A stretch of DNA of 64,000 nt from Massalongia carnosa (taxonomy: Eukaryota): assembly GCA_965645245.1 (NCBI GenBank), contig OZ287071.1, forward strand, positions 558,001 to 622,000, in the 5' to 3' direction. The notes under the pieces were generated by a model that saw only the letters and a list, made by a program, of their open reading frames with translations, was not told the origin of the DNA and did not search any database. Numbering within the stretch: the stretch's first letter is position 1; the number at the start of each line of letters is the position of its first letter. Positions 2,456 through 56,920 of the stretch are shown piece after piece. A program made the position numbers and the translations under genes.

Positions 2456-3709
2456 TCATCCTTTAAATAATCCTCCCTGGCGTGCATCACGATCCTGGAG
2501 TCGACGTCGAATGTCGGTGCTGCTAATCTTTCCCTCATAGCTTTCGATTACCTGGTCTGTCAAATCATCGTTCCCACTCGCGGCATCAAGCACATCAACC
2601 TCGAAAACCTCTAATAATGGCCATCCTTGAGCTTCACGCTTATTATTAACTGCTTGGCCTCCAGATCGCGTTTCGCCTGATATAACCAATGCCGTGATTG
2701 TCGCCTCGGTGATAGTGGGCCCAAATACATCGAATATTTCTACGTAGTTAACAACGAGGCCCGAACGAAACTCGTCCTGGGTGGTCCTAGCCTGGGAGGC
2801 TGGATTGAAAGTGCATCGAGAAGTTTTCACTCTGTCGGTAGGGAAAATCATCTGGAGTGTCTGACTTAAAAATTCGCGTACCATGGTCAGACGCGCATCC
2901 CATTTCTGCATTTCGCTCAAGTAAAGCTTCTTTTGAAGCAGTGCATCTGCGGTGATTCCAATCGTCAAAACTCTTTCGCCCGACAACGCAGGCCCTAGAT
3001 CAGGTTCAAGCAGAAGAGCTGTGATTGTCAAGAGCAACTTGTGTCCCGCATGGAGATGATCAAAAGTTCCTCCAACTGCGACTGAATGGTGGCTCTTCCA
3101 TTCACGGCGCATGACGTTTTGTGGTAGATTATACCCTGGTGACCCGATGGTAATACCAACAGCAACTTTTTCAATATTAGGATGCTCCAAAACCTTACCG
3201 GGAACGGAATTTCTGAGTTGAAGAAATGCCTTTAGCAATGTTTCGCCGTTCTCGCTCTCAAGCGAATAAAGGCGATCCCAAACATGAGGATGGAAGAGTA
3301 GCAGTTGAAAGTGGATGAATGGCCTCTGGGAGAAAGCGTTATTGTCCCCTGTGTGACTAGCTGTTGCATCAAACAACATAACCCTGACGTCGACATCATT
3401 GTCGTATTGTATATCAATTGACTCCTCCACACAAATGATGCATATCAACCTATACAGTAAACCCAACGATTTCTGAAAAGAGTTGTAGTCAGCGCTTTTC
3501 TTGGAATCGTTGCTCGAGGCAACATAATTATACACCACTGCAACATCTAATATAGCAGGTGTAGATTTGGTGAAAACCGAGGACACGTTCCGTAACACTT
3601 GTATAAGGCCTGGTCCATGAGTAGCCTTTAGAGTCGTCAGCGAAGCACATTCGGAATTATGTGGAAGAAGAAGTAGAGAGCGAGGGGAACATGAGGTCAG
3701 AGAAGCCAT
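2456..3709 (-). CDS. CAB4: Pantetheine-phosphate adenylyltransferase (cytidylyltransferase-like, CoA biosynthesis)
   Basis: Intronless 417-aa ORF with VAVGGTFDHLHAGHKLLL (HxGH), DVFGPTIT, LVISGETRSGGQAVN and KISSTDIR motifs. Confidence 0.9.
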   Translation of the reverse strand: MASLTSCSPRSLLLLPHNSECASLTTLKATHGPGLIQVLRNVSSVFTKSTPAILDVAVVYNYVASSNDSKKSADYNSFQKSLGLLYRLICIICVEESIDIQYDNDVDVRVMLFDATASHTGDNNAFSQRPFIHFQLLLFHPHVWDRLYSLESENGETLLKAFLQLRNSVPGKVLEHPNIEKVAVGITIGSPGYNLPQNVMRREWKSHHSVAVGGTFDHLHAGHKLLLTITALLLEPDLGPALSGERVLTIGITADALLQKKLYLSEMQKWDARLTMVREFLSQTLQMIFPTDRVKTSRCTFNPASQARTTQDEFRSGLVVNYVEIFDVFGPTITEATITALVISGETRSGGQAVNNKREAQGWPLLEVFEVDVLDAASGNDDLTDQVIESYEGKISSTDIRRRLQDRDARQGGLFKG

Positions 3710-4007
3710 CCAAGATGTCGTTCATGTAGAAAAGATGGGATGATTTCGCTGCAAACTGGTGCATCATAGGTGTCTTTGACTGAAGATCTGAAACTATTAT
3801 AACTTCATCTTTGTACTCTACTCATACGTGCATACTAGAGGTTTCTACGCGCTTGACTGGTTCCATCCTAGCGCTACATTTTGTAAAATTGATAGGGGGA
3901 CCTCGAAATATACATGTCTTTCACCTTTGATATTGCGCAGTAGTTACATCCACCGACCTTTCAGATCTGTCGCCGGTGCCAAATCTTCTTGGCTCACAGG
4001 AAGAAAC

Positions 4008-6333
4008 ATGCCTCCTCAGGGGCACCACCATTCTCCCACTGCTTCTGCACAACATGATCATAATACAAGTCAGGGTGGTGGTGCTTTTGGCAGAAGCTCT
4101 CATGGTAAGCATGCTGGGGATTTAGGCGGCCCACTGAACTCAGAACTGCTCTGACACAATCAGCGTCGAATGTTGGCACCCAGGAGAGTTCGTTCACTGC
4201 AGCAGGAAATGCTGTAGAATTGAACACTGGAAGTCACTCAAATCCTGCTTCAGTTTTGGGGTCATCTTCTGCGCCTTCATCCGCTATATCGAGTGTATCG
4301 CAGGCTTTCGAAACTCCGCGAAGAGCGCAGACCTACGGTCGAAAACCTGAAGAATTACATATGCCATCTTCTGGTGCTAGCATGGGCCAACAGACCTCAA
4401 AGGAGCTTCCCCGGTATCCGACATATCATCCTTCGCACGAGCCTGCTGGCGAAGTGGCGCCAGGGATTAACGTACACCAGGCTACCCCACAAGGACATCA
4501 CTTCTCCAATGCTCCAGGAAGTACAAATCTACCAGGGCCTTTACAGCCTGGAAGACCACTTCCTCCCTCAATCAATACTGCACCTTCCACTATCCCTACT
4601 TTGCTTCAAGCCTCAAGCCATTCTCAACCTAGCACGCATTCTTCGCGGCCGTCCACCGGAGGCCATGCCCATAGCTACTCGCGGTCCAGTCCTGCCGGGA
4701 TGGATCAGCAGAAATATGTTCCGTTCATCAATACTCCGGAAAACTCCAAATACTCCTCAGCGCCGAACCAAAAGTATACCTCTTCACAGACCCCTCAAGG
4801 AGAGTCAGCATACTCGCCACTAGGGCTTGCCGATATTAGGCCATTAGCTGATTCAGGAATGTCCGATGGCCCATCTAGCGCTAACCCCTACTCCAATGAC
4901 GGTTTTGCGTCCGTACCAACGAATAGTAACTATCTGGCGCCTTGGGCTGTATACGCGTTCGATTGGTGTAAATGGCCTGTACAGCAGCAAAAATCTAACG
5001 ATGGAGGAGGAAAGATGGCCATTGGAAGTTATGTGGAAGATGGTCATAATTTTGTTAGTTCATCATGGTTTCTGCTGGCTCATGGATAGAAGCTTCGTCA
5101 ATATGATACCTGACTGTTGGTACAGATTCAAATACTCGACACCCAGATTAAACCGGAAGCCGACGTTGATCACACGCCTGACGGACCTCCGTACAGCCTT
5201 GAGTTTGTTAAGACAGCTGAAGCCACACATTCGTATCCTGTGACCCGAATCCTATGGGAGCCAGCGTCTTCGCAGAAACAATCGACCGATCTTTTGGCCA
5301 CATCAGGAGATCATTTGAGATTATGGTCTTTACCTTCCCAGTCGTCTTATAATGCCGGCAACTCAATAACACGCTCGTCTAATAACACACAACCCCCCCC
5401 TCAGAAATTAACACCGTTAGCCCTTCTCTCGAACTCGAAATCCCCCGAACATACAGCGCCGCTTACCTCTCTAGACTGGAATAACTTGTCACCGAGCCTT
5501 ATTATTACCTCCAGTATCGATACAACATGTACGATATGGGATATCCCCACTTTGACCGCCAAAACACAACTCATAGCACACGACAAGGAAGTTTTCGACG
5601 TGCGATTTTGTGCCAATAGCGTTGATGTTTTTGTGAGCTGTGGAGCTGATGGTAGTGTACGGATGTTTGATTTAAGAAGCCTAGAACACAGTACTATTAT
5701 ATATGAACCCTCGGAGAAGAATGACAAATGTAACCTAACCCTTCTATTTCACTTGCTTCACTGACGACCAAGATTCAGCGTCAAGTCCTGGGAACATGAG
5801 TCCAACGACTGCCCAACAAACGATGTCATATGCACCTCCATTACTCCGACTAGCCGGTAAGCTTTCAATCGTTATAAGCCTTGGTTTTTGTCCAGCACTA
5901 ATCAGAATTAGCTTCCCCGCATGACGCCCACCTTCTTGCTACGTTTTCCCAAGATTCAAACAGTATACGGATACTCGACGTTCGGCAACCAGGCCAAGCT
6001 TTACTAGAGCTTCGAGGTCATGCTGCCGCCATCAACTGTATAGAATGGTCCCCTTCCCGGAGAGGAACGCTTGCATCCGGTGGTGATGACTCTTTAGTAC
6101 TAATATGGGATCTTTTAAACCATGGGAACTCAAGTGCCGCATCGGGCCTTAACGGAAACCAAAACCCACAAGCTACGCCGAATTCAGAAAACTCTCAAGG
6201 CCCAGCCGCAAGCTGGCAGTGTGAGTATGAAGTAGGCAATATTAGCTGGGCACCTCAAAGTGGTTTGACCAGCCAGGGTAACGACTGGTTGGGAGTGACT
6301 GGGGGAAGAGGTCTTTGGGGGGTTTGTATGTGA
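4008..6333 (+). CDS. WD40-repeat protein of the DCAF7/HAN11/AN11 family with a long Ser/Pro-rich N-terminus
   Basis: Motifs HSYPVTRILWEP, DLLATSGDHLRLW, APLTSLDWN, SSIDTTCTIWD, TQLIAHDKEVFDV and SVRMFDLRSLEHSTIIYE. ATG at 4008, first intron 4105-4163, further introns near 5054, 5729 and 5856, TGA at 6331-6333. Confidence 0.88.
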
Positions 6334-7319
6334 TGGAATGTCTCTCTCTCTATTAGGATTGGGGATGGATTTGGCATTTTCTTGGATTTTTGAATCGTAA
6401 GATATCACATAGCGAGGAGTCTGGCGTTATGGATGGAGATGGCTCACAATGGGGTCATCAATACCCAAGTTATATTTATCGTTACGTCGTTCTCGGTACA
6501 AGGAAAAAGCCGTCATTCAGGACGAGGGATTGTGTATATTGAGTGTACAATCTAATCGTCCATCCATCTGAGTTCCAGTCATACTCTGTCTTGTACTCCG
6601 TACCACACAGTATCGTCAAGATCCAGAGTCGCAGACTCGCGTGACTCGGCTATCATATATTGAACAAAAAATCAACCAGGCATACGGCAGCGGGATGCAG
6701 GAGAAGAGGGTCTAGGGCTATCAAGGATAGGCAAAGAGAAGTGCTTGGCAAACGTGATGCAGGTACTCCGTATTTCCAGTGAAGATACTCCAAATTTAGC
6801 TATCTGCTGAACTGAATTCTGAACGACTGAATAGCTAAATTACATGAGGAGTCATCGTCTCTTTATACTGCTTGAGGGCCTCCATCTCGGCCTATATCAA
6901 ATGCATGAACCTGCTTCCTTTGAACCTTTGCAGCTGGGCAAAATACACCTTATTGCTGACCGGAGACACCGAGACACTCAGTGATCATGAACAGCTGAAT
7001 TGCCTCCGAAATGTAGCATTTTTGCTGCATACCTTTGCCTCCTCGTAGTTGCCGAAGTCGTGCCGGTATCTGAAGCTTTTCGCATGATTGCCTAATCTGG
7101 AAATTAGTAAGCAGGAGGCAAAAGAACCTCGGTCGCAAATATTCAGGTATCTCGGCAAATTCCAATATCATATACCCTAAAGCCTAGAGTACTATCACCG
7201 CTCAGAACGCGCTGCTTACATGGCCTCCTACCCGAATACTGCTGCCTCCAAGCTGACTGATATCGAAACATATCTCCATTCAAAGAACCAACCTTGAACC
7301 CCTTAGCTTCAACCTAACT

Positions 7320-9149
7320 ATGTCTATCAGCTCCTTCCGCAGCCGTCTCCCCAACACCGCCGCCGCCCCCCCTCGTCTCCCCCTAAATCATTCTCCGCCT
7401 CAATACCTTGATTCTACTGCTTACGCTAGCCCCGATACACATGCCCCCTCCTCTTCAAACACCCACCGAAGTTCCTCCCGCGCCCCTACGCTCAGAATAC
7501 CACCCTCATCCAGTAAACAGCAAGATTCTTTCTTCGCGCTTTTTAGGGAAGAGGAGCATCTACATAAAGGACTGCAAACGCTGATCGATGCCCAGAGTGA
7601 GGGTTTACTTGCCGGGTTTGCCGAAGGAGCTTCGGAATATGATAGTGAGGATAGGAGGTCCTCGTCGGCGGGAGAAGGTAGCAGGACGCAAACTTCAAGA
7701 TCTCCAGTTACGCTTCAGCGATATGAGAGGGAAGGCCATCCTATCAGTAGCCGCATTATAACACCCATCCGTCAGCCCACCGGTCGAAAAATTAGCTTGC
7801 ATGGCGCGCGTCGAGGCATTTCGCGCGCCATTTCCGAGTTAGCAGCCTTAAAAGCGGAAGAGCGCATCTTACTTGAAAGCGAGGTTGAGAAAAAGTCCTC
7901 AGAGATATCAACAGCGCGAACTCTGACCGAAAAACGGGAGGGGCTCGAAAGTCAGATCCGCAGCATCGAAGAGAGGCAAAACGCAGGTGGGAAGATGGAG
8001 GAGATGCGGCGCGAGGAGAGGGTGTTGGATGCGGAGATTCGCGAGCTAGAGATGCGGTTGTGGGAGATGAGGGCAAGGCAGGTGCATTTAGTGCATGAGA
8101 TTCAGGGGCTGGACAACCGGGTGCAAAGCCAATTGAGCTCGTACACAGCGGCGCTTCAGCTGGCCGACAAGGAGGCCAGGGACTTTTTGAGGAGACCCCC
8201 TGCTGCGCTGACCTACACGGCGGGGAGCGGTGCGGGAGTAGGAGCACACGGCACAACGGTGAAGAAGGAGACGAGCGGGATTTGGGCGCTCCCGGCCGAT
8301 CGACGCACCCTGGCGATGGCGGATGAGCATTTTCGGGAGGAGCAGCGCTTGCTGCAGGAACAGCTCGAGGCGGCAGAAACAGAGCGCAAGGCGCTGGAGG
8401 AAGGGAGCGGCGTATGGAAGGCCGTGGTGCGCGAAGTGAGCGCGCTGGAAAACCTCCTAAGGGCCGAAACGCAGCGGCTCCCCCCCCCACCGGATTCTTT
8501 TCCGCATCGCAGCGGGTATCGGGAGAATTTCCGTGACGATCATTCTGCTCGGTATGATGGTGATAAAGATGGCGAGGGCGAGGGCGAGGGCGGTGGTGAT
8601 GGAAACGGCGCCAACCCCAAATCCGGCATGACCGCCATTCTCCACCAAATGCACCACGCCTGCTCGCAGCTAAAGTCCCATCTCGCGATCGCCGAGCGCC
8701 GTGGCTGGAACCTCCTCATCTGCTGCATCGGCGCCGAGCTGGAAGCCGTAATCGAAGGCTCTGCCGTACTGCAGGAAGCTCTGCGGGTTTCCTACCCTTC
8801 CTCGTCGTATTCCCCTCCTCTTCCTCCAATTTCTTCGCAGCATGCTTCCGGTACAGCTACAGGGGGGGGGTTGTCAAGCAGGGATAGTCCAACCTTAATC
8901 GCCAATGACGTGGGCGGACGGAATGGCGATGGGCGGATACCGTTGTCGGCCCTTCACCTTCCAGCCCTGGCTGCTGATCAATTGGATGCGGACGTCTTGC
9001 TGCAGGGAGGAGTTCGGCTGGCTCATTCTCATTCTCAATCTCGGCCCCGCCCTGAACGTAATAGGATCACTACGCATGAAGAAGTAGAAGCAGAAGACGA
9101 AGACGACGGCCCAGGCCCGGACTTACTGATTGCGTGTTTGGACGAGTAA
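7320..9149 (+). CDS. ATG28: Atg28-like coiled-coil protein (autophagy/pexophagy related)
   Basis: Intronless 609-aa ORF with LQTLIDAQSEGL, ISLHGARRGI, long coiled coils and C-terminal GWNLLICCIGAELEA, as recalled for Pezizomycotina Atg28 annotations. Confidence 0.72.
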   Translation: MSISSFRSRLPNTAAAPPRLPLNHSPPQYLDSTAYASPDTHAPSSSNTHRSSSRAPTLRIPPSSSKQQDSFFALFREEEHLHKGLQTLIDAQSEGLLAGFAEGASEYDSEDRRSSSAGEGSRTQTSRSPVTLQRYEREGHPISSRIITPIRQPTGRKISLHGARRGISRAISELAALKAEERILLESEVEKKSSEISTARTLTEKREGLESQIRSIEERQNAGGKMEEMRREERVLDAEIRELEMRLWEMRARQVHLVHEIQGLDNRVQSQLSSYTAALQLADKEARDFLRRPPAALTYTAGSGAGVGAHGTTVKKETSGIWALPADRRTLAMADEHFREEQRLLQEQLEAAETERKALEEGSGVWKAVVREVSALENLLRAETQRLPPPPDSFPHRSGYRENFRDDHSARYDGDKDGEGEGEGGGDGNGANPKSGMTAILHQMHHACSQLKSHLAIAERRGWNLLICCIGAELEAVIEGSAVLQEALRVSYPSSSYSPPLPPISSQHASGTATGGGLSSRDSPTLIANDVGGRNGDGRIPLSALHLPALAADQLDADVLLQGGVRLAHSHSQSRPRPERNRITTHEEVEAEDEDDGPGPDLLIACLDE

Positions 9150-9635
9150 GAGCATCATATTATTCTACTATATGGCGAAGGCTTTAGAGGGGCGGGGCGG
9201 GGGCGGGAAGGTGAGTTCACTTTAAGCGTTTTGACCGTCGGAAGGGGGCGGAGAGAGATGTATATAGGTTACCAATTGGAGGCGGAGATTGTATGAAAAA
9301 ATATATGGGCTTAGCTAGCTATGTTTGGCTTGCCCTTATTCATGATATTCATTGATTCTTGAGGGGTTTGAATGTTTAAGCAGCCGATACATGCCTATGG
9401 ATCCTCAGCCCTTCGATGCTATCTCCCTCGGCAACCATTCTCTACTTCTTCTTTCTAATTCTCACTCTCAAATGCTAAGTTGAAGTTCAGCTTCTAACCC
9501 CCCCCCCCCTTTTTTTTTCATCAAACCTCCGCTCTGGCATTTTCACTCTTCGCTTTCCACCTTTCGTTCTTTCCTCTTTTCCTTTCTCCTTCAACCGCCC
9601 CCTCGAGGATCCCCCTTCCCACCTTTCTATCTCTT

Positions 9636-12555
9636 CTAAGGGCTTGGCGACCCGTCTTCATACCTTGGTGCATCGTCGCCGCCCCAAGCGGGTGTCTCTG
9701 GCTCTCCACTATATGGCGTTGGCGCTTCGCCTGCATATCCTGAGAATTTCGGCGTTGACGCTACGGGTGCCGGTGTAGCAGGTGTGTAAACGTTTGATGG
9801 AGTAGGCGCAGCATGTGTATCCTTCCCCGGGGTAGGAGGGTCCCAAATACGGCTGTTAGCTGCTGTGTTAATCGTTGTTGCACTGGCGGATGAGGCGGCT
9901 GGGTCCCATGCGGGAGTTCTCTACACGCGAGACATCGTAATTAGTAGATGTTCTGAGGGGACAAGAGCAAAGGGGGGAGCGCTATAGACTTACACTGCCG
10001 GATGCTGTGGTTCCACCATACGAGGTTCTCGCGCCTGGGTCCCATGCTGGTGTTCTCTATCCGAACGAGATTATAGTAAGTAAATGCTGTAGTAAAGGGG
10101 CCAAAGCAAGAGACTAACACCCCCGGATCCTGACGTTCCACCATATGTGGTACTTCCACCATATGCAGTTCTCGCGCCTGGGTCCCATGCTGGAGTTCTC
10201 TGTGAGGAGGATTCTTAAGTCAGCAGGTGCTTAGACGTAAAAGACGGTAGGGGAGAAAACAATAGACGTACACCTCCAGATCCTGCAGTTCCTCCATATG
10301 CCGTTCTATTGCCAGCAGCATGAGCGCCCCAGGCCGGTGTTCGATTTCCTTGAACTGTAGGTACTGGCGTACGATTACCCGACCACTCAGGAACCCTGGA
10401 GGTGTTGGCCCCTGGAAAACGGCCTCGGCCACGGTCACCTCTTCCGCGATAGCCACCATAGCCTTTCACTTCAATAGGCTGACCGGTTATAGGACTAAAA
10501 ATGGTTAGCTCCAGTCTCATATTCTATACGTTGAGTAGCAGCATACTCCTTAAAGCCTAATGCATCTTTCGGTACAGAAATAATTGCACTCTTGGTGTAT
10601 AATTCAACCCGCCCTATTTCGTCGGTAGTGTACCTTACCCTACCAAGTAGACCTTTGTATTGTCCCTTCTTGATGATGACGGTGTGGCCCGCGGCGTAGT
10701 CTGGAGCATCATAAGTGTATTTGGTTTTTGGTGGCGCCATGATGTCTTGCCCAGTTGCCCCGTTCCGCTGCAAAGCTGGATTCATCTTGGTAAAGTCGGG
10801 CCCATAACTATCACTGGAAGCCTCTCTCAAGTCTTTACTGAAGACAGTGATCTCCTGCATCTCGTGGTCTGTCAAAATGGTAACTGTATCATCCTTGATA
10901 CAAACCACCATTCCTACCGCACCATAATAAGCGCTGCCACCAGATACCTGAACATGATCGCCCTCTCGGAATATCTTGCGTAGACCTTTCACTGGAACCT
11001 CAATGCTTTGCCCTTGAAGTTCTCCTTCGGTAACTTCTAAGGTGACGATATCTGCTCGAACGGACACCGTCTTGCCGCGGACACCTTGTTGCTCCCCTTC
11101 ATAGACTTCAACTATATCACCAGGCGAATAGCTCTTACCAGAAGAGTTCCTCTTGGTGCTAGCTAGGAGGGCTGACAAGTCGAGATTCTCGGTTCCATCT
11201 TCGGCTCCCGCTGTAAATTTGGTGACCTCCTCAAGTGTAGGATTGACGCCTTCAGTAAGGAGATGCTGGATCTTAAAGTCTTTGATCAAGAACCCGTTGA
11301 TATAGGTGTCTCCGTGGTAGGTCCAATGCTTCTTGTCGAAAGTAGACACTGCGTGGAGATACTTCGCCTCCTTCTTCTTAGCTTCGATCTCGCTGAACAA
11401 ACGCTGTGGTGGACGATATAAAGGTATTTTGACGCTGGCACCCGGTCGTTTCCGCTTTGCAGCATCTGCTTTAGCTGCGACAGTTGCCTTTGGCGCCTTT
11501 ACATCCTCGTTGAGTCCGTAGTCGAGACGAGGAACGAGCTTTAATGTTACATTTAGTCCATTAGTCTCAACGTCGTCAATCTGAGCCAAATCGAAAGCGT
11601 ATTTCCCTCGCTTCACCCGGACATAACCACCCGGCTGTAGTTCTTTGTTTTTGTTGACCCGAAGAAGATCTGGCATCTCTTTGATTGGAGACAAAACGAT
11701 CTTGGACCTTGGGAAGCAGTGATACACTCCCTCAAGGGCCTTGAACACGTCCGCCTGCCTGCGAGCTTCGATGAAGACCCAGCCAGGCATATGCCCACAC
11801 CTTTCAAACGCGCAGAATATTGGCGGAGCGTCTACACATCTAGCCCTATCCTCTGCTCTTTTCATTAAATACATCACAACCTCCTTCTCCTTGAGAGGCT
11901 TGGTTTTGACCATCCAGATGCTCGGGTCGTCAACAGTTGGCAATAAAAGACGCTTTGGTATTGTGACCGAATCGTTCGTTTGGGCTCGTTTGCTGCTATA
12001 ACGTTCGTTAAGAATTTTTGCTTGCTTCTCAGCGTCCATCTCCAAGTTCATCTCACGTTGGCGATCGAGCTCTCGATGTCGCCTATCATCCGTTTCAGCG
12101 CCAACTGGAAGGTCTGCAAGATCATCCGGATGTGTATCAGCAATGAATGGATCTGCTTGTCCTTCTTCGTCCTCTTCGTCACCCTCGTCTTCCTCGTCAA
12201 CTTCGGCTTCCACATCAAGATATTGGTTTCTAGGATCTCGGCGACTACGCTTTCGTGGCCGACCCTAAGCATAAGGTTAGACCTGCAATCTACTGTCAGA
12301 CGATATTCGACATACCGAGATCTCCTCTTCCTCCTCGTCTTCCTCCTCCTCATCGTCATCTTCTTCATCATTATCCTCCTCCTCGTCACCTACAACTCCG
12401 TCTTCAGCACCATCCACATTTGAACCATTGCCGCCCGGTGCAGCAGCTTTATCACGTGTAGCTTCGTTGTCCGAATCATCGGCAGGGGCAGGGTTAAAGT
12501 TGTCATCGTCAGATTCAGAGCCAAAATCAGCGCCTAGCAAGGCTGCCGACGACAT
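9636..12555 (-). CDS. SPT5: Transcription elongation factor Spt5 (six exons, ~869 aa; appears to lack KOWx-KOW4)
   Basis: Acidic N-terminus, NGN domain (LLPTVDDPSIW...EARRQADV), KOW1 (VRVKRGKYAFDLAQI...LVPRLDY), KOW2/3, KOW5 and RTPAW repeats. Exons 12555-12316, 12264-10547, 10494-10272, 10199-10119, 10056-9994 and 9920-9636, all with GT-AG junctions, summing to 2610 nt. Confidence 0.93.
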
Positions 12556-13240
12556 GGTTATTAAGGGTACCAGTTATTTTGTGATCAATACAAATGGTGA
12601 GGTATGAGAGAGAAGTTGAGAGGAAAGTGAGAGAGAATTGCAGAATGCAGAGATTAAGTAGGCATGAGGACTTAACTAATTACTTTGTGTTGACCCATAA
12701 GCGTCCAGCCAGTGTTGGAGATGGAATCCAGCCAAAAACGTACTAGCGGAAACCGGGAACTTTGGATGGCGTAAGTTTCGCCTATTATTAACGTAAACTC
12801 CAGCCACTGAAGCTAAACCTCTTCGGGGGTTTGTTCGTTTCATATGCCGCGTCAAATTCATTCAGTTTCGGCTTCTTAGGTCACGTTACATGATCAACTA
12901 CAGATAATCTCTCCCTCGAAGCAAAGGTCAACCTTAACCTCAACCTCCATCAAAACCGCCAACATCAAATATGCAGAAGAACTAAAAAGGGGCTATTGGA
13001 CTAATAGTATTGAAAAAAAACGAATCTGTTACCAACGCCGCACGGATTCTGAGCTCTGTAAAGAAGAACAGTGTCTTCCAAGCAGACGCCGATATGAACC
13101 TTCGGCCCTAGCTCTCCCAAGCCCATTCTCCGTTGATGACAGGCACTAGCTATGTAGCTTAAAACCCCTTAGATACCTTAGCATATCTTGGATGCGCTTG
13201 ATGAACCGTGGACCTGCCCCCAGAGTGCAGGCTCTTCTCA

Positions 13241-43469: not shown

Positions 43470-46400
43470 CTAAGCAAAGATCGCCTTGAACTTGATATCA
43501 AACTCTGCTCGTAATCTTGATAGCGCTCTGTAAACATTCAAGAAACCCTGTTCCACCTCTTCAATAGAGCGACTAGTGCCTTCAAAGTCTCCCTCGCTCG
43601 CTCCGTTCATTGCTTCATTCCCGTCTCCATTATCGTCGTCGTCGTCGTCGTCCCAGGAATCTGCAACCTTTTTCTTCCGTGGATTAGCTGCTTGTGCTGT
43701 TGGCAATGGTATGCGTGCCCTTTCAGAGGCAGTGCTTGCTGAACTGCTTTCGGCCTTCTCACTGGGTGTCTCAGCTGCAAATTTATCGTCTTCAAGATTG
43801 ATGTGCTCATCACCTTCTCCCATGACATCGAGCATGCTGAGATCAGACTCAGGAAGCTTGAGAAAATTGGCGAGGCTGACTGTGATTGTTGCTAACACCA
43901 TTGAGAAATCTAAATCACATGTAATCTAATTAGCGCCACTTGGTTCTTCAGGGTTGAACTATACCAAAATGTTTTTCATACCATTAAGCAAAAACCAAAC
44001 CTCGGATTTTCGCACTCCGTTTGCCCTTTCCAGACAGTTTAGGTCTCCATGCATATAGAAATCATACAAATCTGACAGTGATTAGCTATTACCAAGTCTC
44101 AAAAAAATACCAATTGCTTCAGGTATCAAACGTACATGCGTTTAAAGGAGTTTTAGCTTCGTCGGGATACACATCGAGATGGGGGATCACTGCCTCTTCC
44201 AGGAACACCCCAGACCGAGTTGTTTGACATAAATCCGAAATACTATCAAAAGAATCTCCATGACCAGACAAGGCAACAAATGCTGATCTGACCTTTGGAG
44301 TTGACGAATTTCCGGCGAGGTCTCCAAGGGCCTTGTGGCCGCCAACAGCGATGCCTGTCAGTGGCAAACTGCAGTCGTCCGCTTCAATGTGCTGATCAAC
44401 GAACGTTTGGACATAGGTTGTAAATATCTGAAGGGTTTCCTTATTATGTTGACGAATTATTTCTGCTGCTCGACTGGGTAGAGGAGGAAGAAAAACAATA
44501 GAAGAAGATCTCTTGACAACAGTTTCTACATATTCTTGATCTACCTGTCTACATGGCCTTCGACCAAATAGGTGAGCCATCACAATCATCAAGGTCCGAA
44601 GAACGCTAGACTCTCTCTCCTTTATATCGGAGCACAACCCGTGGAAGAAGCCTTCCTTCAGGAGAGCATTTAACGCAAAACTCGAGTTTTCGGTATAATA
44701 AAGATGAGATGTTAAACCTGCAAAATTGAGTGGAACACCCTGGGAGCTGAGAAGACTCTGCCTTCGAAGGTATTCAATCGAGAATCTTAAATGGTGAAGC
44801 ACTTGATCCTTGAAAGCCAATCCATCAAGATATAGGCGAGGTTGTGAGAGAAGTGAGTTGATTGCTTGTATTGCATATGGGGAATTACCAGATTCATGCA
44901 GTAGCGTAAAAAGCCTCAGCACCAAAGTAGTAGTAATCGGGAAATGTCCGTTTAAGTCTGGAAGCCGGGAGCTGATGAGACGGCAGACCTTGGATTCACT
45001 GATGTTTTGAAAAACCTATTACATCTAAGCACGGATGAGGTAAATTTCAGTTCGGCTCTAAGACACTTACTACGTTTCCAAGAAGATCGAAACCCCGGCG
45101 ACCAGCACGACCAGCAGCTTGTCGAAAATTCAGCGCCGTGAGAAAAACGCTATCACCCGAAAACACAACTGTGGCACATGGCATGTTTATTCCTAGTGCT
45201 AGAGTCCCGGTAGCTATCACCACCCGCAGATATCCTTTTCTAAATAGCATCTCAACCCTATTATTCAAACCTTTAGCATGTAATACTAGGTCGGAGATTT
45301 TGTATCACCATGTATAGTGTAATCCTTAACAGGACTGTGAATCGAGAAACGAAAAGTGAATAAGAAGCTAAGAGTACTTACACTTGACGATACTTGCGGT
45401 TCATTCCGGCATGATGCACTCCAATACCTCTTGTCAAAGCCTCCATCAACCAGGGAGATATTCCTCGTCTTGTCAGTTGCCAGAAGTAGCGTTTTAATTC
45501 CGACGATTCAATCTTATGCTTAGCTGCGAAATGAAAGCCATCGATTGGGGCTTCAGGATCAAAGTTCGCAAAAGGGCTGGCCTCGCTGCTTGCTGCATCT
45601 TGCATCCTTTCGGCTTTTGTGCCAGGACCATCATCATCCTCCTTGCCTCGTTTCTTAGGGGCGATCTTTGGGGCCCTTTTCCCTGCCATCTTTGCTTGTT
45701 CTTTTTTATATTGCTCCCAATCACTTAAGTGCCTTTTCCATATTGAACTTTTCTTCTTCCATTTCGTCTCTGCTGCGTTCAACTGACTGAGGATTGCATT
45801 ACAGATACCCTCACATTTTTCTCGATCGTAATTAAAGAATATCACTGGTAAGGCATCACGTTCATGAAGCTTACAAAGCAGTGGAAGAGTTGTATCAAGC
45901 ACATTGTTTTCGTCAATTTCAACAATGTCCTCAGCTCCTGCGTCTACTGCGTAGCGTCGAGAGATTTGGTCTTTGCTGGAACACTGGTTGAGAAATGTGT
46001 TGCCGAGATCCTTCACCACTTTATCGAAAGGAGAGTTGTCATCACGCATCCACGCTTTCAATAAAGCTTTTAAATTTTCTTCCCACCGGATGATATCGGA
46101 TTTTGCCAAGATCTTAGGGAAGGCATGATTTTCCGGGTCTAATGAGGGATTAATTGGATACCGAGGGGTCTGATGGCGATTCAAAGTTTGCCAAAGCGAT
46201 AAGCAATCCCTGGCTTCCAAGCTAAGATCTTCTGGAATTCCTCTTGATTTGTTCACCAGGCTTGCAACAGGATGGAGAAACAGCAGCCCTTCTAAGCCAT
46301 CTAGACCAAGGGTTCCGAAAGAAGTTTTGGGCGCAAGCCCATGAAATGCGAAGCGCCTGGGAGGTACGAATAGAAATTTTCGTAAATCTGAATAACGATG

Positions 46401-49400
46401 TTGATGCTTGATCATGGTTAACTGGAATCCAGATGATTCCTGCGTAGCGGCTAACCATGAGCTGAACTTCTCTGGGTTTCCCACAGTTGCCGACAAAGCA
46501 ATGATGGGACATGGCGCGAGAAGAAGTAGCTGCTCCCATACCACACCATCCTCCGCATTTCCAATAGAATGTATCTCATCAAATATGATAGTCTTTACTT
46601 TTTTAGACCAGGTTTTTGCATTTCCTGGGGACAGAAGCATGATCTGCAGTATGTGTGGCACGGTAACTAGAATCTGACAACCGGAAGGATTGTTGACTCT
46701 GTAATCTCTAGTATGAATAGCCCAAACTGATTTTCCGGCATGCTTGTACGTCTTCTTGTAACGCGCTTGGATCTCTGCTCCAATCTGATTAACTAGGGCT
46801 TTAGTAGGGGCTATGTATACCAAAATGCTGTCGTCGTTCAACCTAAGTATTCGCTCCATTGCGTAAAATGAAATAAAGGTTTTTCCCGCGCTGGTGGGCG
46901 CTACAACAAAGACACTTCGATCAGCATCGAGCTCATCCAAAACTTTTCGCTGCCAGCCATCTGGATTAAAAGGAACTCGTATGTCAGGTGCGGAATCTAG
47001 ATTACGGTCCATGTATGGACCGCAATACAGACACTGGAAATCAATTGGTCTCAGGGGTATTGAAATTGCTGTAGGATTGGACAAATGCAAATTTGGGCTA
47101 AAAGAGAGCTTGCGATCATTGGTTGGCTGGGGAATCTCCATGTGGGGTAGGTTCATAGTATCCAGAATTTGCTTCATATGTCCCGTGATGGCCTTGGTGA
47201 GCCCGTTGGTGGAAGAAAGTCTTCGAATTGAATCCCATACTAACGCGGCAACGCCATACAGCTCGTCGTTATTCGAGGCACCCTGATCATTACTTTTACT
47301 AGAAAGACCTCGATGAATATCTACTAGAACGGTTAGAATATAGAATTCAACTTCAGCCTGAAGCACGTTTCGTTTCGAGTCTGTCAAGTCTCGGAGGTAG
47401 GCTTTAGCTTTGGAGTACTTTGAGCTAAGGAGGGCCTCGAAGTCTAATCCCCTTCGTACCGTCTGCCAGGAGGAGAATAATCTCTCTGCGTTCTCGTTGT
47501 CCTTGCTGACTTTACTTGCCGCAATGTTTTCTAGCATCGCTTTTTTGCCAGCTCCCTTCCGGTTAGATGTAGCATTAACATTGTTATGCTTTCTTGAACT
47601 GCCACTATCTTCGCTATTCCCACTTTCAATATAGGTAGTATTACTCTTCTTCGCGTCGGTAACGGTTACAGTTTCGGGTTCTAATATCTTACCCGAAGCA
47701 TTAGTTAAGCTGGCGGCATAAGCTTGCATCTCAGCCATAAAAAATTGGTTTCTTCTCAAGGCGCGGGACTTCTCTTTTTCAGTAAGAGGATGAATGGATT
47801 TGGGATCAATGCGACGTTTGGCGTTATGCCAGTGAGAAATCTCTTGGAAGATTCGAGCTGATTGACAACCCACAATTTCCGCGCTTCCTATTGAAATTTT
47901 GATCGACGACAGATGTTTATCGAACACCGCATTCGAGAAGGGTAACACAGATATTTTATTCCTAGAGACCACGTCACTCCTGAAATTGCGCTCTATTGTT
48001 CCTCCGAGGGAGGTGATTTGGGGCTGGTATTTAACTCGAACTCCACATAGCGAATGTAGTAATTGAGCTAGTTCTTCGGTTTTCGAATCAAGCCAAGCAA
48101 TACTTGTTTCTTTATTGAGGAGATTTCGGGTAGACTGGGAGGATATAGCATAAAACAAGCGGCCATCAATCAGGTCAGCTATGTCACAATCTATTTTTTG
48201 CGCATCCATCGTGGAACTCCAGCTCCGCTCATCGAGGATTTGGCGAGATATAATCGAAAATTCAGCCAGGAATTTAGAAGCTTTGAGATCTTCCTCACTC
48301 GCTTCGTGGTTCCATAACTGTGGGCGACACGAAATAATTGTCTCTCCTATCAGCACCGTGTGAAGTAGAAAGCTTAACGCCAGCGAACAATCAAATTGTT
48401 TTTTTTTAAGAATGTAAGCCAACGTTATAAGGGCTAGATAGATACGCTCAGGGAATACAGGCTGACCGGCAACGGTTAATCCCTTAAGCATATCTTCTGG
48501 TGATTTTTCTTTTTTATCCACAGTATCAATTTGGTGTTTTGTGAAGGATGGAGTCTTGAATCCAAGCTTTAGAAGGAATGGCTCAGCTATACAACATGGG
48601 GTCACATTCTGTGACTCCTGGGTATCAGGACCATCCAAGTATAACCCGGAGTTGATTGGTGCTCGGCGAGAACCTTCCACCATCATAGCCATTACCTATG
48701 TAGTTGGTTCAGCAAATACAAATAGGTCCTGGAAACTGTCCTAAAAGCCCTACCTTTGTATCCATCCATTCTAACCCGTTGATGAGCGCTACGTTGTAGC
48801 CTTTCTTGATCAATAAGCATATTGTACTCCTGAACCCAACCTTTCTTGCAAATTCTCCCGCCTCAATATTGATATTTCCCCCTTTATCTACCTGTTCTTC
48901 ATCATCTCCGTCCTCGTCATCATTATCGTCGCCTTCATCATCTTCGTCTTCATCGTCTTCATCACCATCTTCCTCAGCATCTTCCTCCGATAGAGACATG
49001 TTCCCACTATTAACAGTTGGGTTGGCTCCATCATGACAAAGCATGAAGTATACGTCTGATGTCTTCAAATATATCTCAAAACTGGGATCAAATAGTGATT
49101 CAAATACTCGTAAGGTTATCGAGGGGTGGGTCTTTGGGAGATGGACCTGAAAATGGCGGATAAGAACTGATCTTGCAAGAAGGTATTTGTGGCGATTCTC
49201 GGAAGAGGTAGCCCATGGAATGCACTGCTCTTGATGGTTTTGGAAGAAAACTATATGGAAATTGCACTTTCTCTGCACAAGACCTTGAAGAAAATGCTCA
49301 ACGGCATATATAGAGTGTAAGAGCTGGAATCCCTCTGTAAGGGCAGAACCACTGTTAGCAATTTCTTGTTAATATTTTTGCGACATGCTGATGCGGTTTT

Positions 49401-50701: not shown

Positions 50702-52389
50702 CTAGCCGATTCGTTTCTCCAACTTCTTAAACAATCGGTTAACACCCTTTTCAACCTTTTCGGCCTTCTGCTCCAGTTTACCAGATGGTTGACCCAACGG
50801 GTTTTCTGAGTGTTTGCGATGTTTGTGTTTTTGGGCTTCCTCCTCTGTTGGTCTGTATACTTGACTATGTACATCATACTCATCATTATGCGGGTGATGC
50901 TTATGGTGATGTTTCGGTTGGTCATACTGATAATTAGAATACCCACCTTCAGGCTTCTGTGATTGATGGTGAGTCTCAAGATAATCGGCATACTGCGGCT
51001 GAAGATGTTGCAGCGGCTGTGGAGGGCCGGCAACATAGGAATTTCCGAGAATTTCTGTTGCTGGGGAATCTGGTCGCCGCAATTCCTTACCGTAAGGATA
51101 AATGTCTGGGTTCTGGGATGGCGGACTGGAGGATTTGCTGGGTAACTTCGAGTATGCAGCAGGTGAGCTTCCAGAGCTCTGCACTGGTGAAGAGTGAGGA
51201 GGCAGGCTTGAATATGAACTCGGCATTTTCTCAACACTTTGAGGTGGAGCAGGTGGAAAATACGAGACACTTGAGGACCTATGGTCCTGCAAAGGAACTG
51301 GAGGACTGGCATAGCCAGTAGGGGGCAGGGGTAAGGTAGATGGAGTTTTGCGCAACGGGTCTTGATTGGGAGGACTGGCATACCCCTGCGAGGATAGCGA
51401 ATAGCTATAAGGAGAGTTTGAAAGCGAGCCATGATGATGACCTAATGACATTGCTGCCTGTGTCTGATCATGATAGGCAGCCGCAGCAAGCCCAGTACCT
51501 GCCTCGGATTCTGGTGGCGGTGGTGTCTTCTCTCGGTGCTTGATTGGTTCTGGTGCTGGGGGTGCAGCTGGATTGTAGGCTAGAGGTTGATATGCTCCCG
51601 TTTCTTCGGTCTTGGGTACCTTTTGTGCCTCAACCTGCGGCTGCCTTGGAGCTGGAGGAGGGGGAAGGGACGTTGTAGCTAGCTCGGAGCTCCTAACATG
51701 TTCATTATGATATGCTGTATCCTGGATTGCTATACTCTCCAACTGCTGTACGACAGGACTCATAACTTGTTCATGAGTGGCCGGGGCAGGAGGAACATCG
51801 AAGATTTCAATCTGCTGCGGTTCAAGTAACCTTTCAACCATAGTAATGAAAGAATCCGCATCCTCCCTAGTCCAAAAATAGATATCGAGAGTGTGAAGCC
51901 GAAAGAGAAATTTCCCTTCGTTCCTGGGATCGGTATTTGGTAGTCGCCAGTGGTGCTCTGAATACTTAGTTGGTTGAGAGGCAGCCCCATGATGACCCTG
52001 ATAGCCATCTACTATGACGGTGACAAGGGATGGGTGCTTATGAGATTGTTGAATCTTTGTCGTTGCGAGAGCTGAAAGTCGATTAGCTTTAGTTGTATCA
52101 ATAAGCCTTGAAAATCCGCTCACAGCCGGTAAAAGCATCTTGCTCTGGTTTGCCCACATTGTTTGCAATCTCCAACCGGCCTCCATCATGACTGCTATTT
52201 CGATGTAGGTATAGATAAGATGCCTTGTCGAATCTATGTGATGATGGCCGGGGGGTCGGCGCGCTGAAATAGTAATGAACATCTGCAAAACTAACCAAGA
52301 CCATTCGTCAGCCTAAACATGCTTAAACTTGTAGATTCTTATTCGAGTTACACGGTCATGACACGCTCCTCGCCATGGTCTGTCGACAT
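50702..52389 (-). CDS. Conserved fungal hypothetical protein (globular N-terminal domain, Pro-rich middle, His-rich C-terminus)
   Basis: FLFRLHTLDIYFW, YNPAAPPAPEPIKHREKTPPP, HSQVYRPTEEE and KVEKGVNRLFKKLEKRIG; short first exon from ATG 52389. Confidence 0.75.
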
Positions 52390-53337
52390 GTTTCCAGCTT
52401 GAGAAGAGAAGGTATGTCTTATCAATTTGAGAGAAATTCTCGAGAGGCGCCTCCTAGGTTTTGGTTAAGTTATTCTGGGGTTCGATGACTGAATTAAAGG
52501 GAATAAGTACCAAGAGCATGATTTATTGGTTGTGATGTGGCACTGATGAGCTCATGATGCATGGTAGTTGTTGCTTATATAATATTATCTACCTTCTAAG
52601 GCAAAAGATTCTACAGAGTGTGCTTATTCTAATCTCCCTTCCAGATCGTAATGCGGATTTTGGGCTAGATGGGAACATCGTCACCTAGCCCTCTGAGCTT
52701 AGGCATTGCCAGGACGTTGCAGAGCGCCGGTTACGAGCCTGAGGGCGAGGTCCTTATTGGTGTCAAGCGGCGCAGCAGGACTCGGAATCTCGGCTTCCAT
52801 GTTCTGATAGAAGAGAAGAAGATAGAGGTCCACGACGAACGGCACAATGCTAGCCGAAACGGAGCTTTAAGTTGGTACTCGTAGGAGCTTCTATAGGAGG
52901 TAACAATCTAGGTACCAGTGAAGTGGGCTGACATAATGTATAACTACCTGTTAGTCAATACTAAAAATATTTTGGCAGTTTCTCTTATGTTTCGTAGCAT
53001 AGAATTTTTGAAGACATACTCGATCTGGCTGCTAAGTCAGTCGAATGCATTTTTCCATTCTAATGTTATATTCAATTCCAGTCAATCGTCCCAGGTGATG
53101 AGGTAGTTACGTAAAATAGATGAAGCCACGTGATGTTATTTGAATTTGACCGATGATTGGACACAATGCAAGTTGCTATGGACGAAGTGGGGGTAAACAA
53201 ACATTGCTTATTATAATGCGCCTAACTTGCTTTGTCAACAAAACAATCTTTCCGCTTTCATCCAAACGCGCATTCAACGTCAATCTTGCACCTTGCATTT
53301 GTTGCAAAAAGCCCTATTCGCGAAAGCTTTAGAATCA

Positions 53338-56300
53338 ATGGTATCCACCAAAGCCGCTTCAACTTCGACGAAGCGAAAGAAGACCGCAGACATGCCGGAT
53401 TCGCCTCCAAAGCGTGTCACCCGTGCACGCGCAAAAGTAATAGATGATGGTGTAGCGCAATCCAAAATCACGAGAATAACAACAGCATCTGCGAAGATAT
53501 CTGCAGAGAAGAAACCAAAGGTTGAATCTGTCAAAACCACCAAACGGAAGTCCAGGGCCGAGGGTGGGAATGACGATGTTGAGATGGAAAAAGAGAAGGT
53601 AACTAAGGAACCAGCAAAGAAAGAGCCAACGAAAACAAGAGGCAGACAGAAGAAGACTCAAGCTGAGACGGGTAAGGATGCGCTCAAGGTTGATGATCTA
53701 GCGCCACACAAAACTCGTTCAGCTAAGCCGATAATTGCTGAGGAAATCAGCGCAGAGGGCCCAAAGCCGAGAGGAAGACCTAAAAAGGCCATCAGCGCCG
53801 CACCTGCGGTTTTGAACAAGGTCGAAGCTGCAGATACCTCAGCACCAGCGAAGAAGAGCGTGCGTGGACGACCAACAACTATCACCGCTAAGCCTGCAAC
53901 AACCAAACAATTAACGAAAGCACCGGCGACGAGAAAGAAGGTCAAATTTCAAGATGAAGACGAGAAGGATAAAGAAAACGTGCCTTTGCAGGTAAAAGCT
54001 GCCGGAAAGCCTACAGTTAAAACGACTGGGTTACGGGCGAAGCCAATTCGCAAACCTACTACCAAAAAAATTGCGCCTCGAAGTAAAATGATAGAGGTAG
54101 AAAAGAAAGAGATTGAAGAAGTTTCAGCCGAAAAGCAGCAACCGCTGTCACCCAAAAAGGTGACACAAATTGCAAAGAGCAGTTCAATTGGTTCTGAAGA
54201 CGAGTTAGGCTGTGAGAAGACACCAGTAAGATCATTGAGCATATCACCGATAAAGCCACGAATAAGTCCAATTCGGGAAATGAACCAAGTCGTCTCTAAG
54301 ATTGACTTTGGCAATACCAAAACTCCATCCTCCCCTGTAAGAAGTGTACAGCGCATCTTAGCTAGCCCTGCCAGACGGCCGGCTCTATCACCGTTTAAGG
54401 ACGCGTTCAAAGAGTCTCCAAAGCGAGTGAACCTTGATGAGAGCATAATCAACCCGTCGGCTATGATTTCGAAATCGCCAGCAAAAGCTTCATTGCTGCA
54501 ATCTCCAGCCCGTCGGCTTGTGGTACCGCCAATCCAACTCAATGTAACTATGTCACCCACCAAGTCTGGATTTGCTTTCGAGACTGCAACGAATTCAAAG
54601 CCGGTCAAGAATCTTTCATTTCCTCCTCGGTCACCTGGGAAGACTTTCAGTAGTCCGCTTAGAAGTCTTAGAACACCAGGCCAAGCACACAAGATCAACC
54701 ATGTAAACACCGCAAGAAAGCAAACGGCATCTGAATTGAATAGCCCAGATATTCTCGCTCACTCAAGTCCTGACCTAGGCTCTAGCCCTGACAACGGTTT
54801 ACTCTCTCCGGTAGTGGCTTCTACTATGGAGTTCGTCCAAGACGCTCATTCAGTGCTGAATCTATCTTCATCTCCTTCTCAGGTTCCTACACCTGCTGCT
54901 GAGAAAGTTCTCGATGGTGCTGAGAGTGTGGTTGAGCATCACCCGTTCCCCACGGATCTTGAACCGCCGGTACTTGCAGCACCAGTCTTCTCGTTTGCGT
55001 CCCCACCCCGATATGTCCCAGAAGATTCGGAGTCGGAGGATGAATTAACCTCTCTCCGCAAATCCTATGCGCCAACTCCATTTGGAAGACTTGAAAGAAT
55101 AAAAAATTCTTCGAGCACGCCTTCATTGTTGTTGTCCAGAGGGAGAACGGAACCAGCTCAACGCACATCTCAGGCAGTAGTGCCAAACGAACATGTGGAG
55201 TGGACGCCCATCCCCCAAGACAAAGTAGAGGTATTCGCAATAACACCATTGGCGACGCAGCTAAGCACCTGGCTTGCATCGAGTGCGGAAAAGACCACTC
55301 CGCTAGAACCAAAGGAGCAGAAACGAGGTCTTTTCTCTCCTGCAGGGCCAACTCTTCTCGAGAGACCCGGGCAACGCTGGCTAGCAAGCACTATGGAGTC
55401 GCCCCCCAAGTCTTCGTTTTTTGATGATGAGATGGCTACTCGTGATGAACATGAAGAAGCTACCACGGAATTGCAGGTGGAGACTGAGGATGCCATCGTG
55501 GATGTGGGGGCGAGCATGGAATCTCGAACGTCATCGCAATACGGTGACGAGAATGCTGTACCCCTTGATCCTCAGCTTATCGCTTCCGAGCCAGTTCATG
55601 ACGACCTCATATTGACCTGTACACCAGCGAGGGTGTTTCCTATGCAGCTGCGAGAGATCCATACAGTTTCAAAAGTTCCATTGAGGGCTGAAGGCGAGGA
55701 ATCCCCGCTCAAAATTCCAAAGAAGCGAAGCAGATCGCTGGCAGCCCCCTTAAGTATGGGGAGCACCGAGAAGTTTGATTTTGGCCCCAGTAACGATTAC
55801 GTGCAGTTGGTCGAGGATACAAGTACGTCAGGTTCTATCGAATCTGCGGATGCCTTGGGTAATACCCATTCTACTCCATCCAAAGCCTGCTGTGGTATGC
55901 CGAAAACCCCTGGCACAGGTCTTCTATCCATCTTCGGTACCCCTATGAGGTCTGTTAGGAAGGGTATTGTACCCGACGTTCTCAAGGGGGCCGTAGTTTA
56001 TGTCGATGTGCACACTACAGAAGGTGCAGACGCCAGTGGAATCTTCCTCGATCTACTAACCCAAATGGGAGCGCGCTGCGTCAAGCAATGGCTCTGGAAC
56101 TCTCGCTCTGGCGTGCCCGGCTCCGGTGATGATTCGGCGGATCCATCTACGGATCTAAGCCATCCAGGTAGCAAAGTGGGAATCACTCACGTTGTATACA
56201 AAGATGGCGGGAAACGAACGCTGGAAAAGGTGCGCGAGGCTAAAGGTGTGGTCCTGTGTGTTGGTGTAGGATGGGTCTTGGAGTTAGTCAATCCCTTGGT

Positions 56301-56920
56301 CTCAAGACTTTTTTCTTAAGTATCACACAATGTATACTGACTCGTCATCAAACAGCTGTGAGCGCGAGGACCGCTGGCTCGATGAGAGCGAATACGCAGT
56401 CGACACCTCACTTATCCCCCGCGGAGGTCGTAACCGCCGTAAATCTATGGAACCCCGTGCCTTGTCCAATATGAACGGGAGTCTCATCCCTGCAGAAACC
56501 CCTGCCAAACCCATAGCCGACACCACGCTCTCGCCGACCAATGAATTCCTTACTTTTGATACCCCAACCTCTCGCCGCGATACCTTCATCATTCAACAAC
56601 CGCAGCCGCCACACACCCCCATAACCGTTACCGCTGCCACTCCCGTCCATCACGGTCTCGACGAATATAATGGAGCAGAGGACGACTCCTCATGGGGATC
56701 CCCAACCACACCGTACTACCTGAGCCGCGGCGCGCAGCTGGTGCAGCAAACATGCCCGCCCAAACAGACGGGCGAGCTGCTGTTTCCTCTTTCTGGCCGG
56801 ATCGAGGATCAGCCAGACGCAGCTTTGCGGCAGAGACTGTTGATGGCGCGGAGAAAGAGCTTGCAATGGGTTCCTAAGGTCTCGAGTCCGTTGGGGCGGG
56901 CGGTAAGCTATGGGAAGTAA
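53338..56920 (+). CDS. Large Lys/Ser/Pro-rich protein with a C-terminal BRCT domain
   Basis: Many SP/TP motifs and RGRPKK AT-hook-like motifs; BRCT-like LKGAVVYVDVHTTEGADAS...LTQMGARCVKQW...ITHVVYKDGG...CVGVGWVLD; intron ~56283-56355. Confidence 0.82.

Follow-up and report, generated by a model that had tools for sequence, protein, structure and literature searches.

Among transcription factors, Spt5 alone is conserved across all living organisms. Archaeal Spt5 and bacterial NusG consist of an NGN domain and a single KOW domain and work without the KOWx and KOW4 domains (KOWx-4), so the core function does not need this module, and specialised Spt5 paralogues, such as SPT5L/KTF1 of plants and the developmental or germline Spt5 of ciliates, have altered domain sets and evolve faster. 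Here, we describe an SPT5 gene in a 64,000-nucleotide stretch of Massalongia carnosa DNA (contig OZ287071.1, positions 558,001 to 622,000; hereafter the window, in whose numbering coordinates are given) that has lost its KOWx and KOW4 codons in frame. We consider this gene, with a probability of about 0.65, to be the SPT5 orthologue of a Peltigerales lichen-forming ascomycete carrying an in-frame deletion of 393 bases. The lost module has been studied in other organisms: one report describes KOWx-4 together with KOW5 as an 'RNA clamp' over the exit tunnel of RNA polymerase II (Pol II) (PMC9467590), and another maps contacts of KOWx-4 to Rpb4/7 by cross-linking in yeast and states that the spt5-ΔKOW4 strain 'grew almost normally', with Pol II density declining towards the 3' end and transcription-coupled repair slightly enhanced (PMC4066765). 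Yeast without KOW4 also shows cryptic initiation and a changed choice of poly(A) sites, and what the central KOW domains do in vivo is still under study (PMC13334181).

Spt5 proteins are identified by an NGN domain together with one or more KOW domains, according to PMC13289920. The protein encoded in the window (hereafter W; P0001 denotes the translation of its second exon, window:10549-12264 on the minus strand) has an NGN domain that scores 62.9 bits against a Pfam cut-off of 22.4, followed by KOW1_SPT5, KOW2_Spt5, and KOW5_SPT5 domains that each exceed their own cut-offs, which by sequence places W in the Spt5/NusG family with an architecture that is canonical for eukaryotes except for KOWx-KOW4. 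The KOW1-linker region (P0001 209-351) matches the solved structure 4ytk_A with an E-value of 2.5e-22, KOW2-3 (P0001 379-479) matches 4ytl_A with an E-value of 2.4e-12, and the last 222 residues read as a repeat region with five RTP motifs in GNRTPAWG and RTPAWDPGART repeats. A scripted check of the coding sequence returned 2610 nt, corresponding to 869 amino acids (aa) and a single terminal stop, with GT..AG borders at all five introns (51-73 nt), and the spliced length of 869 aa given in the first-pass annotation was thereby reproduced.

The deletion lies inside one long open reading frame (ORF). The stop-to-stop ORF at 10495-12264 on the minus strand reads ...FREGDHVQVSGGSAYYGAVGMVVCIKDDTVTILTDHEMQEITVFSKDLREASSDS and then YGPDFTKMNPALQRNG... 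into KOW5 (GHTVIIKKGQYKGLLGRVRYTTDEIGRVELY) without a stop or an intron, so that the end of KOW3, ...ITVFSKDLREASSDS, is joined directly to YGPDFTKMNPALQRNG. At this junction, relatives carry 131 extra codons encoding KOWx and KOW4, and the nearest ones carry an intron as well. An alignment of 12 sequences, 10 of them relatives, contains a single 131-column gap in W between '..KDLREASSD' and 'SYGPDF..', where the full-length relatives hold 126-131 residues reading ...GGLGRYDIHDLVQLD...LRVLDQNG...DTVRE...HIYRSFLF...AAKGGR..., and after it GPDFTKMNPAL of the W linker aligns with GPDLxKMNPAL of relatives and solved chains. In the long exon of W, neither KOWx (PF23037) nor KOW4 (PF23291) was found by Pfam at E<=1, whereas in the Spt5 of Pseudocyphellaria aurata the same scan placed KOWx at residues 613-659 and KOW4 at residues 668-720. 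Solved chains give a similar picture, as W 2-486 aligns with residues 265-706 of 8qsz_Y and W 485-569 with residues 827-906, skipping 120 residues, and residues 588-718 of 7wbv_W are skipped. At the DNA level, the distance from KDLREA to GPD is 33 nt in W, compared to 426 nt in three loci without an intron and 477-478 nt in two loci with one, and it follows from the intron-less loci that 393 coding bases are absent from W. The KOWx-4 segment was also not found elsewhere in the 64-kb window when the segments of four relatives were used as tblastn queries (best E 0.65). SPT5 has thus lost exactly KOWx and KOW4, 131 codons, in frame. The first-pass annotation had proposed such a loss with no intron to hide the missing sequence, had placed the junction at ~10806, where codon Y occupies 10806-10804, and had named motifs of the missing segment, which are indeed present in the relatives (DLVQLD, LRVLDQNG, DTVRE, and HIYR/HIHR); the loss itself is borne out by the domain scans, alignments, solved chains, anchor spacing, and tblastn searches.

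As for how the segment was lost, relatives carry a short ASxSG repeat at both of its edges, and their sequences can be read as containing possible cryptic splice sites (G/GT at the left edge and CAG/G at the right edge). Neither slippage at the ASxSG repeats nor mis-splicing followed by reverse transcription yields the exact junction SSDSYGPD, and both were set aside as origins of the deletion.

A missing segment of this kind could also be created if KOWx-4 exists in the organism and has merely been collapsed out of the assembly or its consensus, and the first-pass annotation had named this as a way in which the loss could prove false. We therefore compared Logan contigs of four sequencing runs from three studies (X1, X3, X4, and X5) over 9400-12800. 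Contigs of all four runs span the junction with no joints or loose ends there. Those of X1 and X3 (organism A) are identical to the window, whereas X4, a lichen metagenome from another study, provides one contig of 10,787 nt across the whole gene that differs from the window by eight single-nucleotide polymorphisms (SNPs) and two small non-coding indels, with the length at the junction unchanged, and the third study contributes a 161-nt contig of X5 (10728-10888) that spans the junction. The SNPs and indels mark X4 as a different individual, and the database protein P0122, which comes from an independent assembly, represents the X4-type allele (99% identical) and has the same Pfam set as W. 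Because contigs of three studies bridge the junction, the deletion is not an artefact of assembly; we found no evidence for such an artefact in these data and regard it as extremely improbable. The deletion is present in at least two individuals besides the possible source of the window.

Two further observations concern these samples. A run of ~9 A followed by ~15 G lies at 9487-9515, ~120-140 bases downstream of the SPT5 stop; the X3 contigs break at this run, and at 9508 there is a length difference of 3 bases in X4. In X5 (organism B), the SPT5 pieces have a depth of 0.4-9.4, while other contigs at a depth of ~249 match only the acidic GAG/GAT-rich stretch (12136-12249), and from this difference in depth the fungus carrying the gene seems to make up only a small part of that sample.

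It is also clear from our results that the deletion is specific to one lineage and is not a trait of the clade. Of 240 database proteins, 158 include the anchors on both sides of the junction, 68 are ORFs that terminate at an intron and so do not reach the second anchor, and 14 did not match the anchor patterns. The spacing between the anchors is 140-145 residues in 157 of the 158, and the only exception, with 14 residues, is P0122, the allele of the same gene. Metagenome loci agree, with a spacing of 429-490 nt in all 33 paired loci versus 45 nt in the window (79 loci in all, 46 of which did not match the anchor patterns). All 12 Peltigerales-like ORFs checked, the nearest relatives of W included, carry the start of KOWx (..GGLGRYDIHELVQL) and end in ...GGLGRYDIHELVQLE, which is the KOWx start followed by read-through into an intron. 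Since the KOWx start is kept in 12 of 12, the deletion is younger than the split from these relatives, and a clade-wide gap, which would have made the loss a known lineage trait, is excluded. If the ancestor had the KOWx intron, the deletion probably removed it as well. This phase-2 intron, just after ..DLVQL, occurs in Peltigerales-like relatives and some other lichen fungi (P0129, P0130, P0136, P0137, P0145, P0152, P0156, P0157, P0159, P0163, P0166, and P0207, as well as the loci L007, L016, and L062); it is missing from L001, L002, L008, and L009 and is on that account polymorphic across Lecanoromycetes.

Loss of an entire conserved domain pair, on a long branch, would be consistent with a gene in decay, in which the deletion inactivated SPT5 and the locus is now turning into a pseudogene, and two of the four coding SNPs between the window and X4 are replacements. 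Several lines of evidence make this explanation very unlikely. Despite ~0.4 changes per residue on its branch, W retains 869 open codons and five GT-AG introns. Between the window and X4, there are four SNPs in 310 intron bases and four in 2610 coding bases (Fisher p=0.006), an 8-fold lower density in exons than in introns; the coding SNPs comprise two synonymous changes and two conservative-looking replacements (T594I and I610V), and neither of the two indels is coding. Of 170 columns with at least 95% conservation across 37 other Spt5 sequences, only 5 differ in W, compared to 5 of 173 in P. aurata and more in several others. In an AlphaFold2 run with a 40-sequence alignment, the remaining domains are predicted to fold confidently, with a predicted local distance difference test (pLDDT) score of ~70-86 across NGN, KOW1, KOW2-3, and KOW5 (NGN about 67-85, KOW2-3 82-84, and KOW5 82-86); the KOW3-KOW5 tether falls below 50 at 484-491 and 501-521 and contains a short helix at 496-499, and the overall predicted template modelling score (pTM) is 0.30, low as expected for beads on a string. 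SPT5 is, moreover, described as essential in yeast (PMC4066765). Given the intact frame and splice sites, the low number of exon SNPs, the conserved core columns, and the confident predicted folds, a pseudogene is disfavoured, and W is presumably still made and used as a protein.

The first-pass annotation had further described NGN and KOW5 as unusually divergent, with several Cys residues in NGN. Extra Cys residues are present in the alignment, and the Pfam scores of both domains are lower than in relatives (62.9 versus 79-87 bits for NGN and 48.7 versus 61-62 bits for KOW5); the near-invariant columns, however, do not set W apart from P. aurata, so the description holds for the profile scores and not for the conserved core. 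Substitutions at near-invariant columns occur in KOW3, for example K439Q and E449A. Within NGN, at 11690-11850 on the minus strand, Thr, Ser, Gly, or Asn residues of relatives are replaced in W by four Cys and two His (..RARCVD..IFCAFERCGHMPGW..GVYHCFP..), and their spacing, C-x8-C-x4-C-x-H ... H-C, prompts the question whether they form a metal site or change the interface with Spt4.

Whether W is a streamlined orthologue or a diverged paralogue of SPT5, the two possibilities raised in the first-pass annotation, bears directly on what the deletion means. Its best matches are all Lecanoromycetes, the nearest named relative being P. aurata (Peltigerales, Lobariaceae), and a 48-row tree drawn from the best 120 database matches of near length places W and P0122 together with P. 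aurata, P0166, P0156, P0163, and P0207 in a clade of seven rows (SH-aLRT 96). Homologues of the window genes at 2-1002, 2459-3721, 4109-6330, and 7257-9146 lie within 10 kb of canonical SPT5 in contigs of lichen fungi (L007, L008, L016, L009, L055, L029, and L030), and the gene at 7257-9146 has the same convergent orientation to SPT5 in other such contigs. Introns 1 and 2 of W stand at positions that are read through in the relatives P0145 (which reads through the position of intron 1) and P0126, and since ancestral intron positions are kept, W is not a retrocopy. W thus occupies the ancestral locus of SPT5, and an orthologue is favoured by its synteny, its shared introns, and its place in the tree.

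The alternative is that a canonical five-KOW SPT5 resides elsewhere in the genome and that W, freed from constraint as its paralogue, lost KOWx-4 and is either specialising, like SPT5L/KTF1 of plants or the germline Spt5 of ciliates, or drifting slowly. Such a copy would account for a speed-up confined to this gene, with a stem of 0.38-0.40 for W compared to 0.11-0.16 for most members of the clade, and for the unusual substitutions in NGN (Cys/His), KOW3, and KOW5 with their lower Pfam scores. It is harder to reconcile with the ancestral SPT5 neighbourhood and intron positions of W, or with its retention of the acidic N-terminus, the C-terminal repeat (CTR), and 165 of 170 near-invariant positions. 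Branch lengths in the clade also speak to this point: P0156, P0163, and P0207 have 0.11, 0.13, and 0.16, whereas P0166 has 0.28 and P. aurata 0.31, and P. aurata, with only one Spt5 in the two match lists, thus nearly equals W. As the P. aurata lineage bears KOWx-4 and is nearly as fast, speed alone is no mark of a paralogue. Less directly, a canonical copy from the same runs would be expected among the 120 matches, and the 48-row tree contains no short-branched sister specific to W. On balance, we judge a diverged paralogue to be unlikely.

Several points weigh against the orthologue that we favour. No other branch in the clade is as long as that of W (0.38 changes per column, counted from the clade node), while the DAHP synthase encoded in the window, used as a control, is not accelerated (0.30 compared to 0.20-0.37 in its sisters). 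Because this enzyme comes from the same organism, the speed-up is specific to SPT5, as would also be expected of a freed paralogue, and the synteny is compatible with a segmental duplicate. The trees come from 'quick' searches with long rows and merit lower trust, a single control gene supports the rate comparison, and the evidence for constraint consists of only eight SNPs. The yeast ΔKOW4 allele, finally, removed 706-765 only and kept KOWx, making it an imperfect proxy for W. Concerning the rates, a first tree had suggested a unique ~4-fold acceleration of W, which was toned down when P. aurata and P0166 proved almost as long in the larger tree. The lineage of these two has kept KOWx-4 yet has a fast Spt5 (0.28-0.31 compared to 0.11-0.16 in neighbours), and Spt5 rates look unusually uneven in this family. 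The sampling around W is also sparse: the best non-self match of the class-II DAHP synthase is 82-83% identical, from which we conclude that the database contains no very close relative, and the available DNA relatives of W have 66-68% protein identity, a distance at which synonymous sites would be saturated. In the metagenome loci, which are not close relatives, the Spt5 identity is 68%, compared to ~70-80% expected from three neighbouring genes.

If W is the SPT5 orthologue, a plausible picture of how it works can be drawn by homology. NGN would pair with Spt4, and NGN-KOW1 would close over DNA as the DNA clamp; KOW2-3 would sit beside the Rpb4/7 stalk and KOW5 at the RNA exit, and the RTPAW repeats would still serve as a phosphorylation platform that recruits the usual partners. 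Binding to Pol II and pairing with Spt4 are thus to be expected from the sequence of W. What would be lost is only the KOWx-4 half of the RNA clamp, along with its contacts to the clamp and stalk, and a disordered tether of ~40 residues, in which GPDxTKMNPAL is kept, would now join KOW3 to KOW5. By analogy with yeast, the effects may be mild, involving somewhat lower processivity, altered control of 3'-end formation and cryptic initiation, and less repression of transcription-coupled repair, and the fungus may tolerate them, perhaps with partial compensation in view of the faster evolution of W. Because yeast spt5-ΔKOW4 grows almost normally, it is plausible that natural loss of KOWx-4 is mildly deleterious or conditionally neutral. 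The additional substitutions in KOW3, KOW5, and NGN may represent either relaxation or compensation.

A stronger and more tentative proposal, which we consider possible though doubtful, is that W is the sole SPT5 of a free-living lichen ascomycete, that all Pol II transcription in this fungus proceeds without the KOWx-4 half of the clamp, and that the burst of substitutions reflects co-adaptation. The co-adaptation would involve KOW3, KOW5, and NGN and, by prediction, the surfaces of the Rpb4/7 stalk and the Rpb1 clamp. Were this correct, the fungus would constitute a natural ΔKOWx-4 experiment, and the loss might even be favoured, as ΔKOW4 relieves repression of transcription-coupled repair in yeast and the organism is exposed to UV. 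Our searches of the accessible full-text literature turned up no description of a natural KOWx-4 loss (papers in subscription journals fell outside this scope). A clean deletion of KOWx-4 in a wild fungus, with the rest of the protein under constraint, would imply that the module can be dispensed with in nature as well as in laboratory yeast, and the partners of KOWx-4 should be traceable through the surfaces that have changed along with its loss. Should the genome contain a canonical copy at another locus, W would be a rare fungal example of an Spt5 paralogue that has specialised.

The coordinates of the gene and its domains are collected in Table 1.

Table 1. Features of the SPT5 locus, in window coordinates.
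Feature	Position	Strand	Details
SPT5 coding sequence	9636-12555	minus	ATG at 12555, stop 9636-9638; 6 exons, 869 aa
Exon 1	12316-12555	minus	80 codons, acidic N-terminus
Intron 1	12265-12315	minus	GTATGT..TAG
Exon 2	10547-12264	minus	572 codons + 2 nt; Spt5_N, NGN, KOW1, KOW2, KOW3, linker, KOW5
Spt5_N acidic region	11938-12222	minus	P0001 15-109; Pfam PF11942, E 7e-21
NGN domain with Cys/His substitutions	11662-11922	minus	P0001 115-201; PF03439, E 2.8e-17
KOW1 and KOW1-linker domain	11215-11631	minus	P0001 212-350; PF23042, E 1.4e-5
KOW2-KOW3 tandem	10810-11124	minus	P0001 381-485; PF23284, E 1.6e-16
Deletion junction, codons SSDSY	10804-10818	minus	breakpoint ambiguous inside this range; from alignments
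KOW4-KOW5 linker remnant	10690-10809	minus	P0001 486-525; conserved GPDxTKMNPAL motif; joins KOW3 to KOW5
KOW5	10549-10689	minus	P0001 526-572; PF23290, E 5.4e-13
Introns 2-5	10495-10546, 10200-10271, 10057-10118, 9921-9993	minus	
Exons 3-6	10272-10494, 10119-10199, 9994-10056, 9636-9920	minus	
C-terminal repeat region	9639-10494	minus	exons 3-6; 5 RTP motifs, GNRTPAWG type

Elsewhere in the window, a pair of large ORFs at 45381-49368 on the minus strand codes for a DDX60-type PIN-like domain (219 aa) followed by a DEAD/ResIII helicase (1105 aa), which suggests that this lichen fungus has a DDX60-like helicase. Two other long frames, at 53197-56316 on the plus strand (1040 aa) and 50705-52312 on the minus strand (536 aa), had no Pfam match at E<=1e-4.

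When W is compared with known systems, a search of its KOW2-to-KOW5 part against 1.84 billion representative proteins, with the best 150 assessed, returned one other candidate for a natural loss. P0508 (640 aa) is the only one of these 150 representatives in which KOW2-3, the linker, and KOW5 lie in a stretch free of inserts, with residues 4-191 of the query matching 406-593 at 33% identity. Pfam finds NGN, KOW1, KOW2, KOW, and KOW5 in P0508 and no KOWx, and a sub-threshold KOW4 match of 22 bits falls on KOW2. It carries a short RTPAYGG repeat and, by our own reading, an animal-like KOW5. Either KOWx-4 was naturally lost a second time in P0508, independently, or exons were skipped in its gene model; it is not related by descent to the deletion in W. 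P0368, whose long matched stretch had also made it a candidate, was rejected, as Pfam finds both KOWx and KOW4 in it.

Archaeal Spt5 and NusG lack the acidic N-terminus and the CTR, and W, by comparison, remains a eukaryotic multi-KOW Spt5. From the specialised paralogues, W differs by its ancestral SPT5 locus and its canonical CTR. The plant SPT5L/KTF1 (RNA-directed DNA methylation 3, 8hyj_W) matches only W 6-252 (E 1e-19), and no Ago-hook GW/WG repeats were noticed in the translated C-terminal exons of W, although no dedicated scan for them was made. With the canonical fungal Spt5 (8qsz_Y, 7wbv_W/6ir9_W, 8jch_W/7nky_Z, and P0002 of P. aurata), W shares the acidic N-terminus, NGN, KOW1-linker, and KOW2-3, as well as the GPDxxKMNPAL linker motif, KOW5, and a C-terminal repeat of the RTPAW type, and over the parts they have in common its identity to ascomycete Spt5 is 59-76%. 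It differs from them in lacking 120-131 residues of KOWx and KOW4 and in the Cys/His replacements of NGN, and its rate of evolution is ~2.4-3.5 times that of most members of the clade. Engineered counterparts are the Saccharomyces cerevisiae alleles spt5-ΔKOW4 (Δ706-765) and ΔKOW4-5, which also lack KOW4 and are viable with near-normal growth, so that KOW4 is not a strictly essential domain (PMC13334181 and PMC4066765). In contrast to these alleles, W is a natural form known from its sequence in samples of three studies, in which KOWx is also gone while KOW5 and the linker motif are kept.

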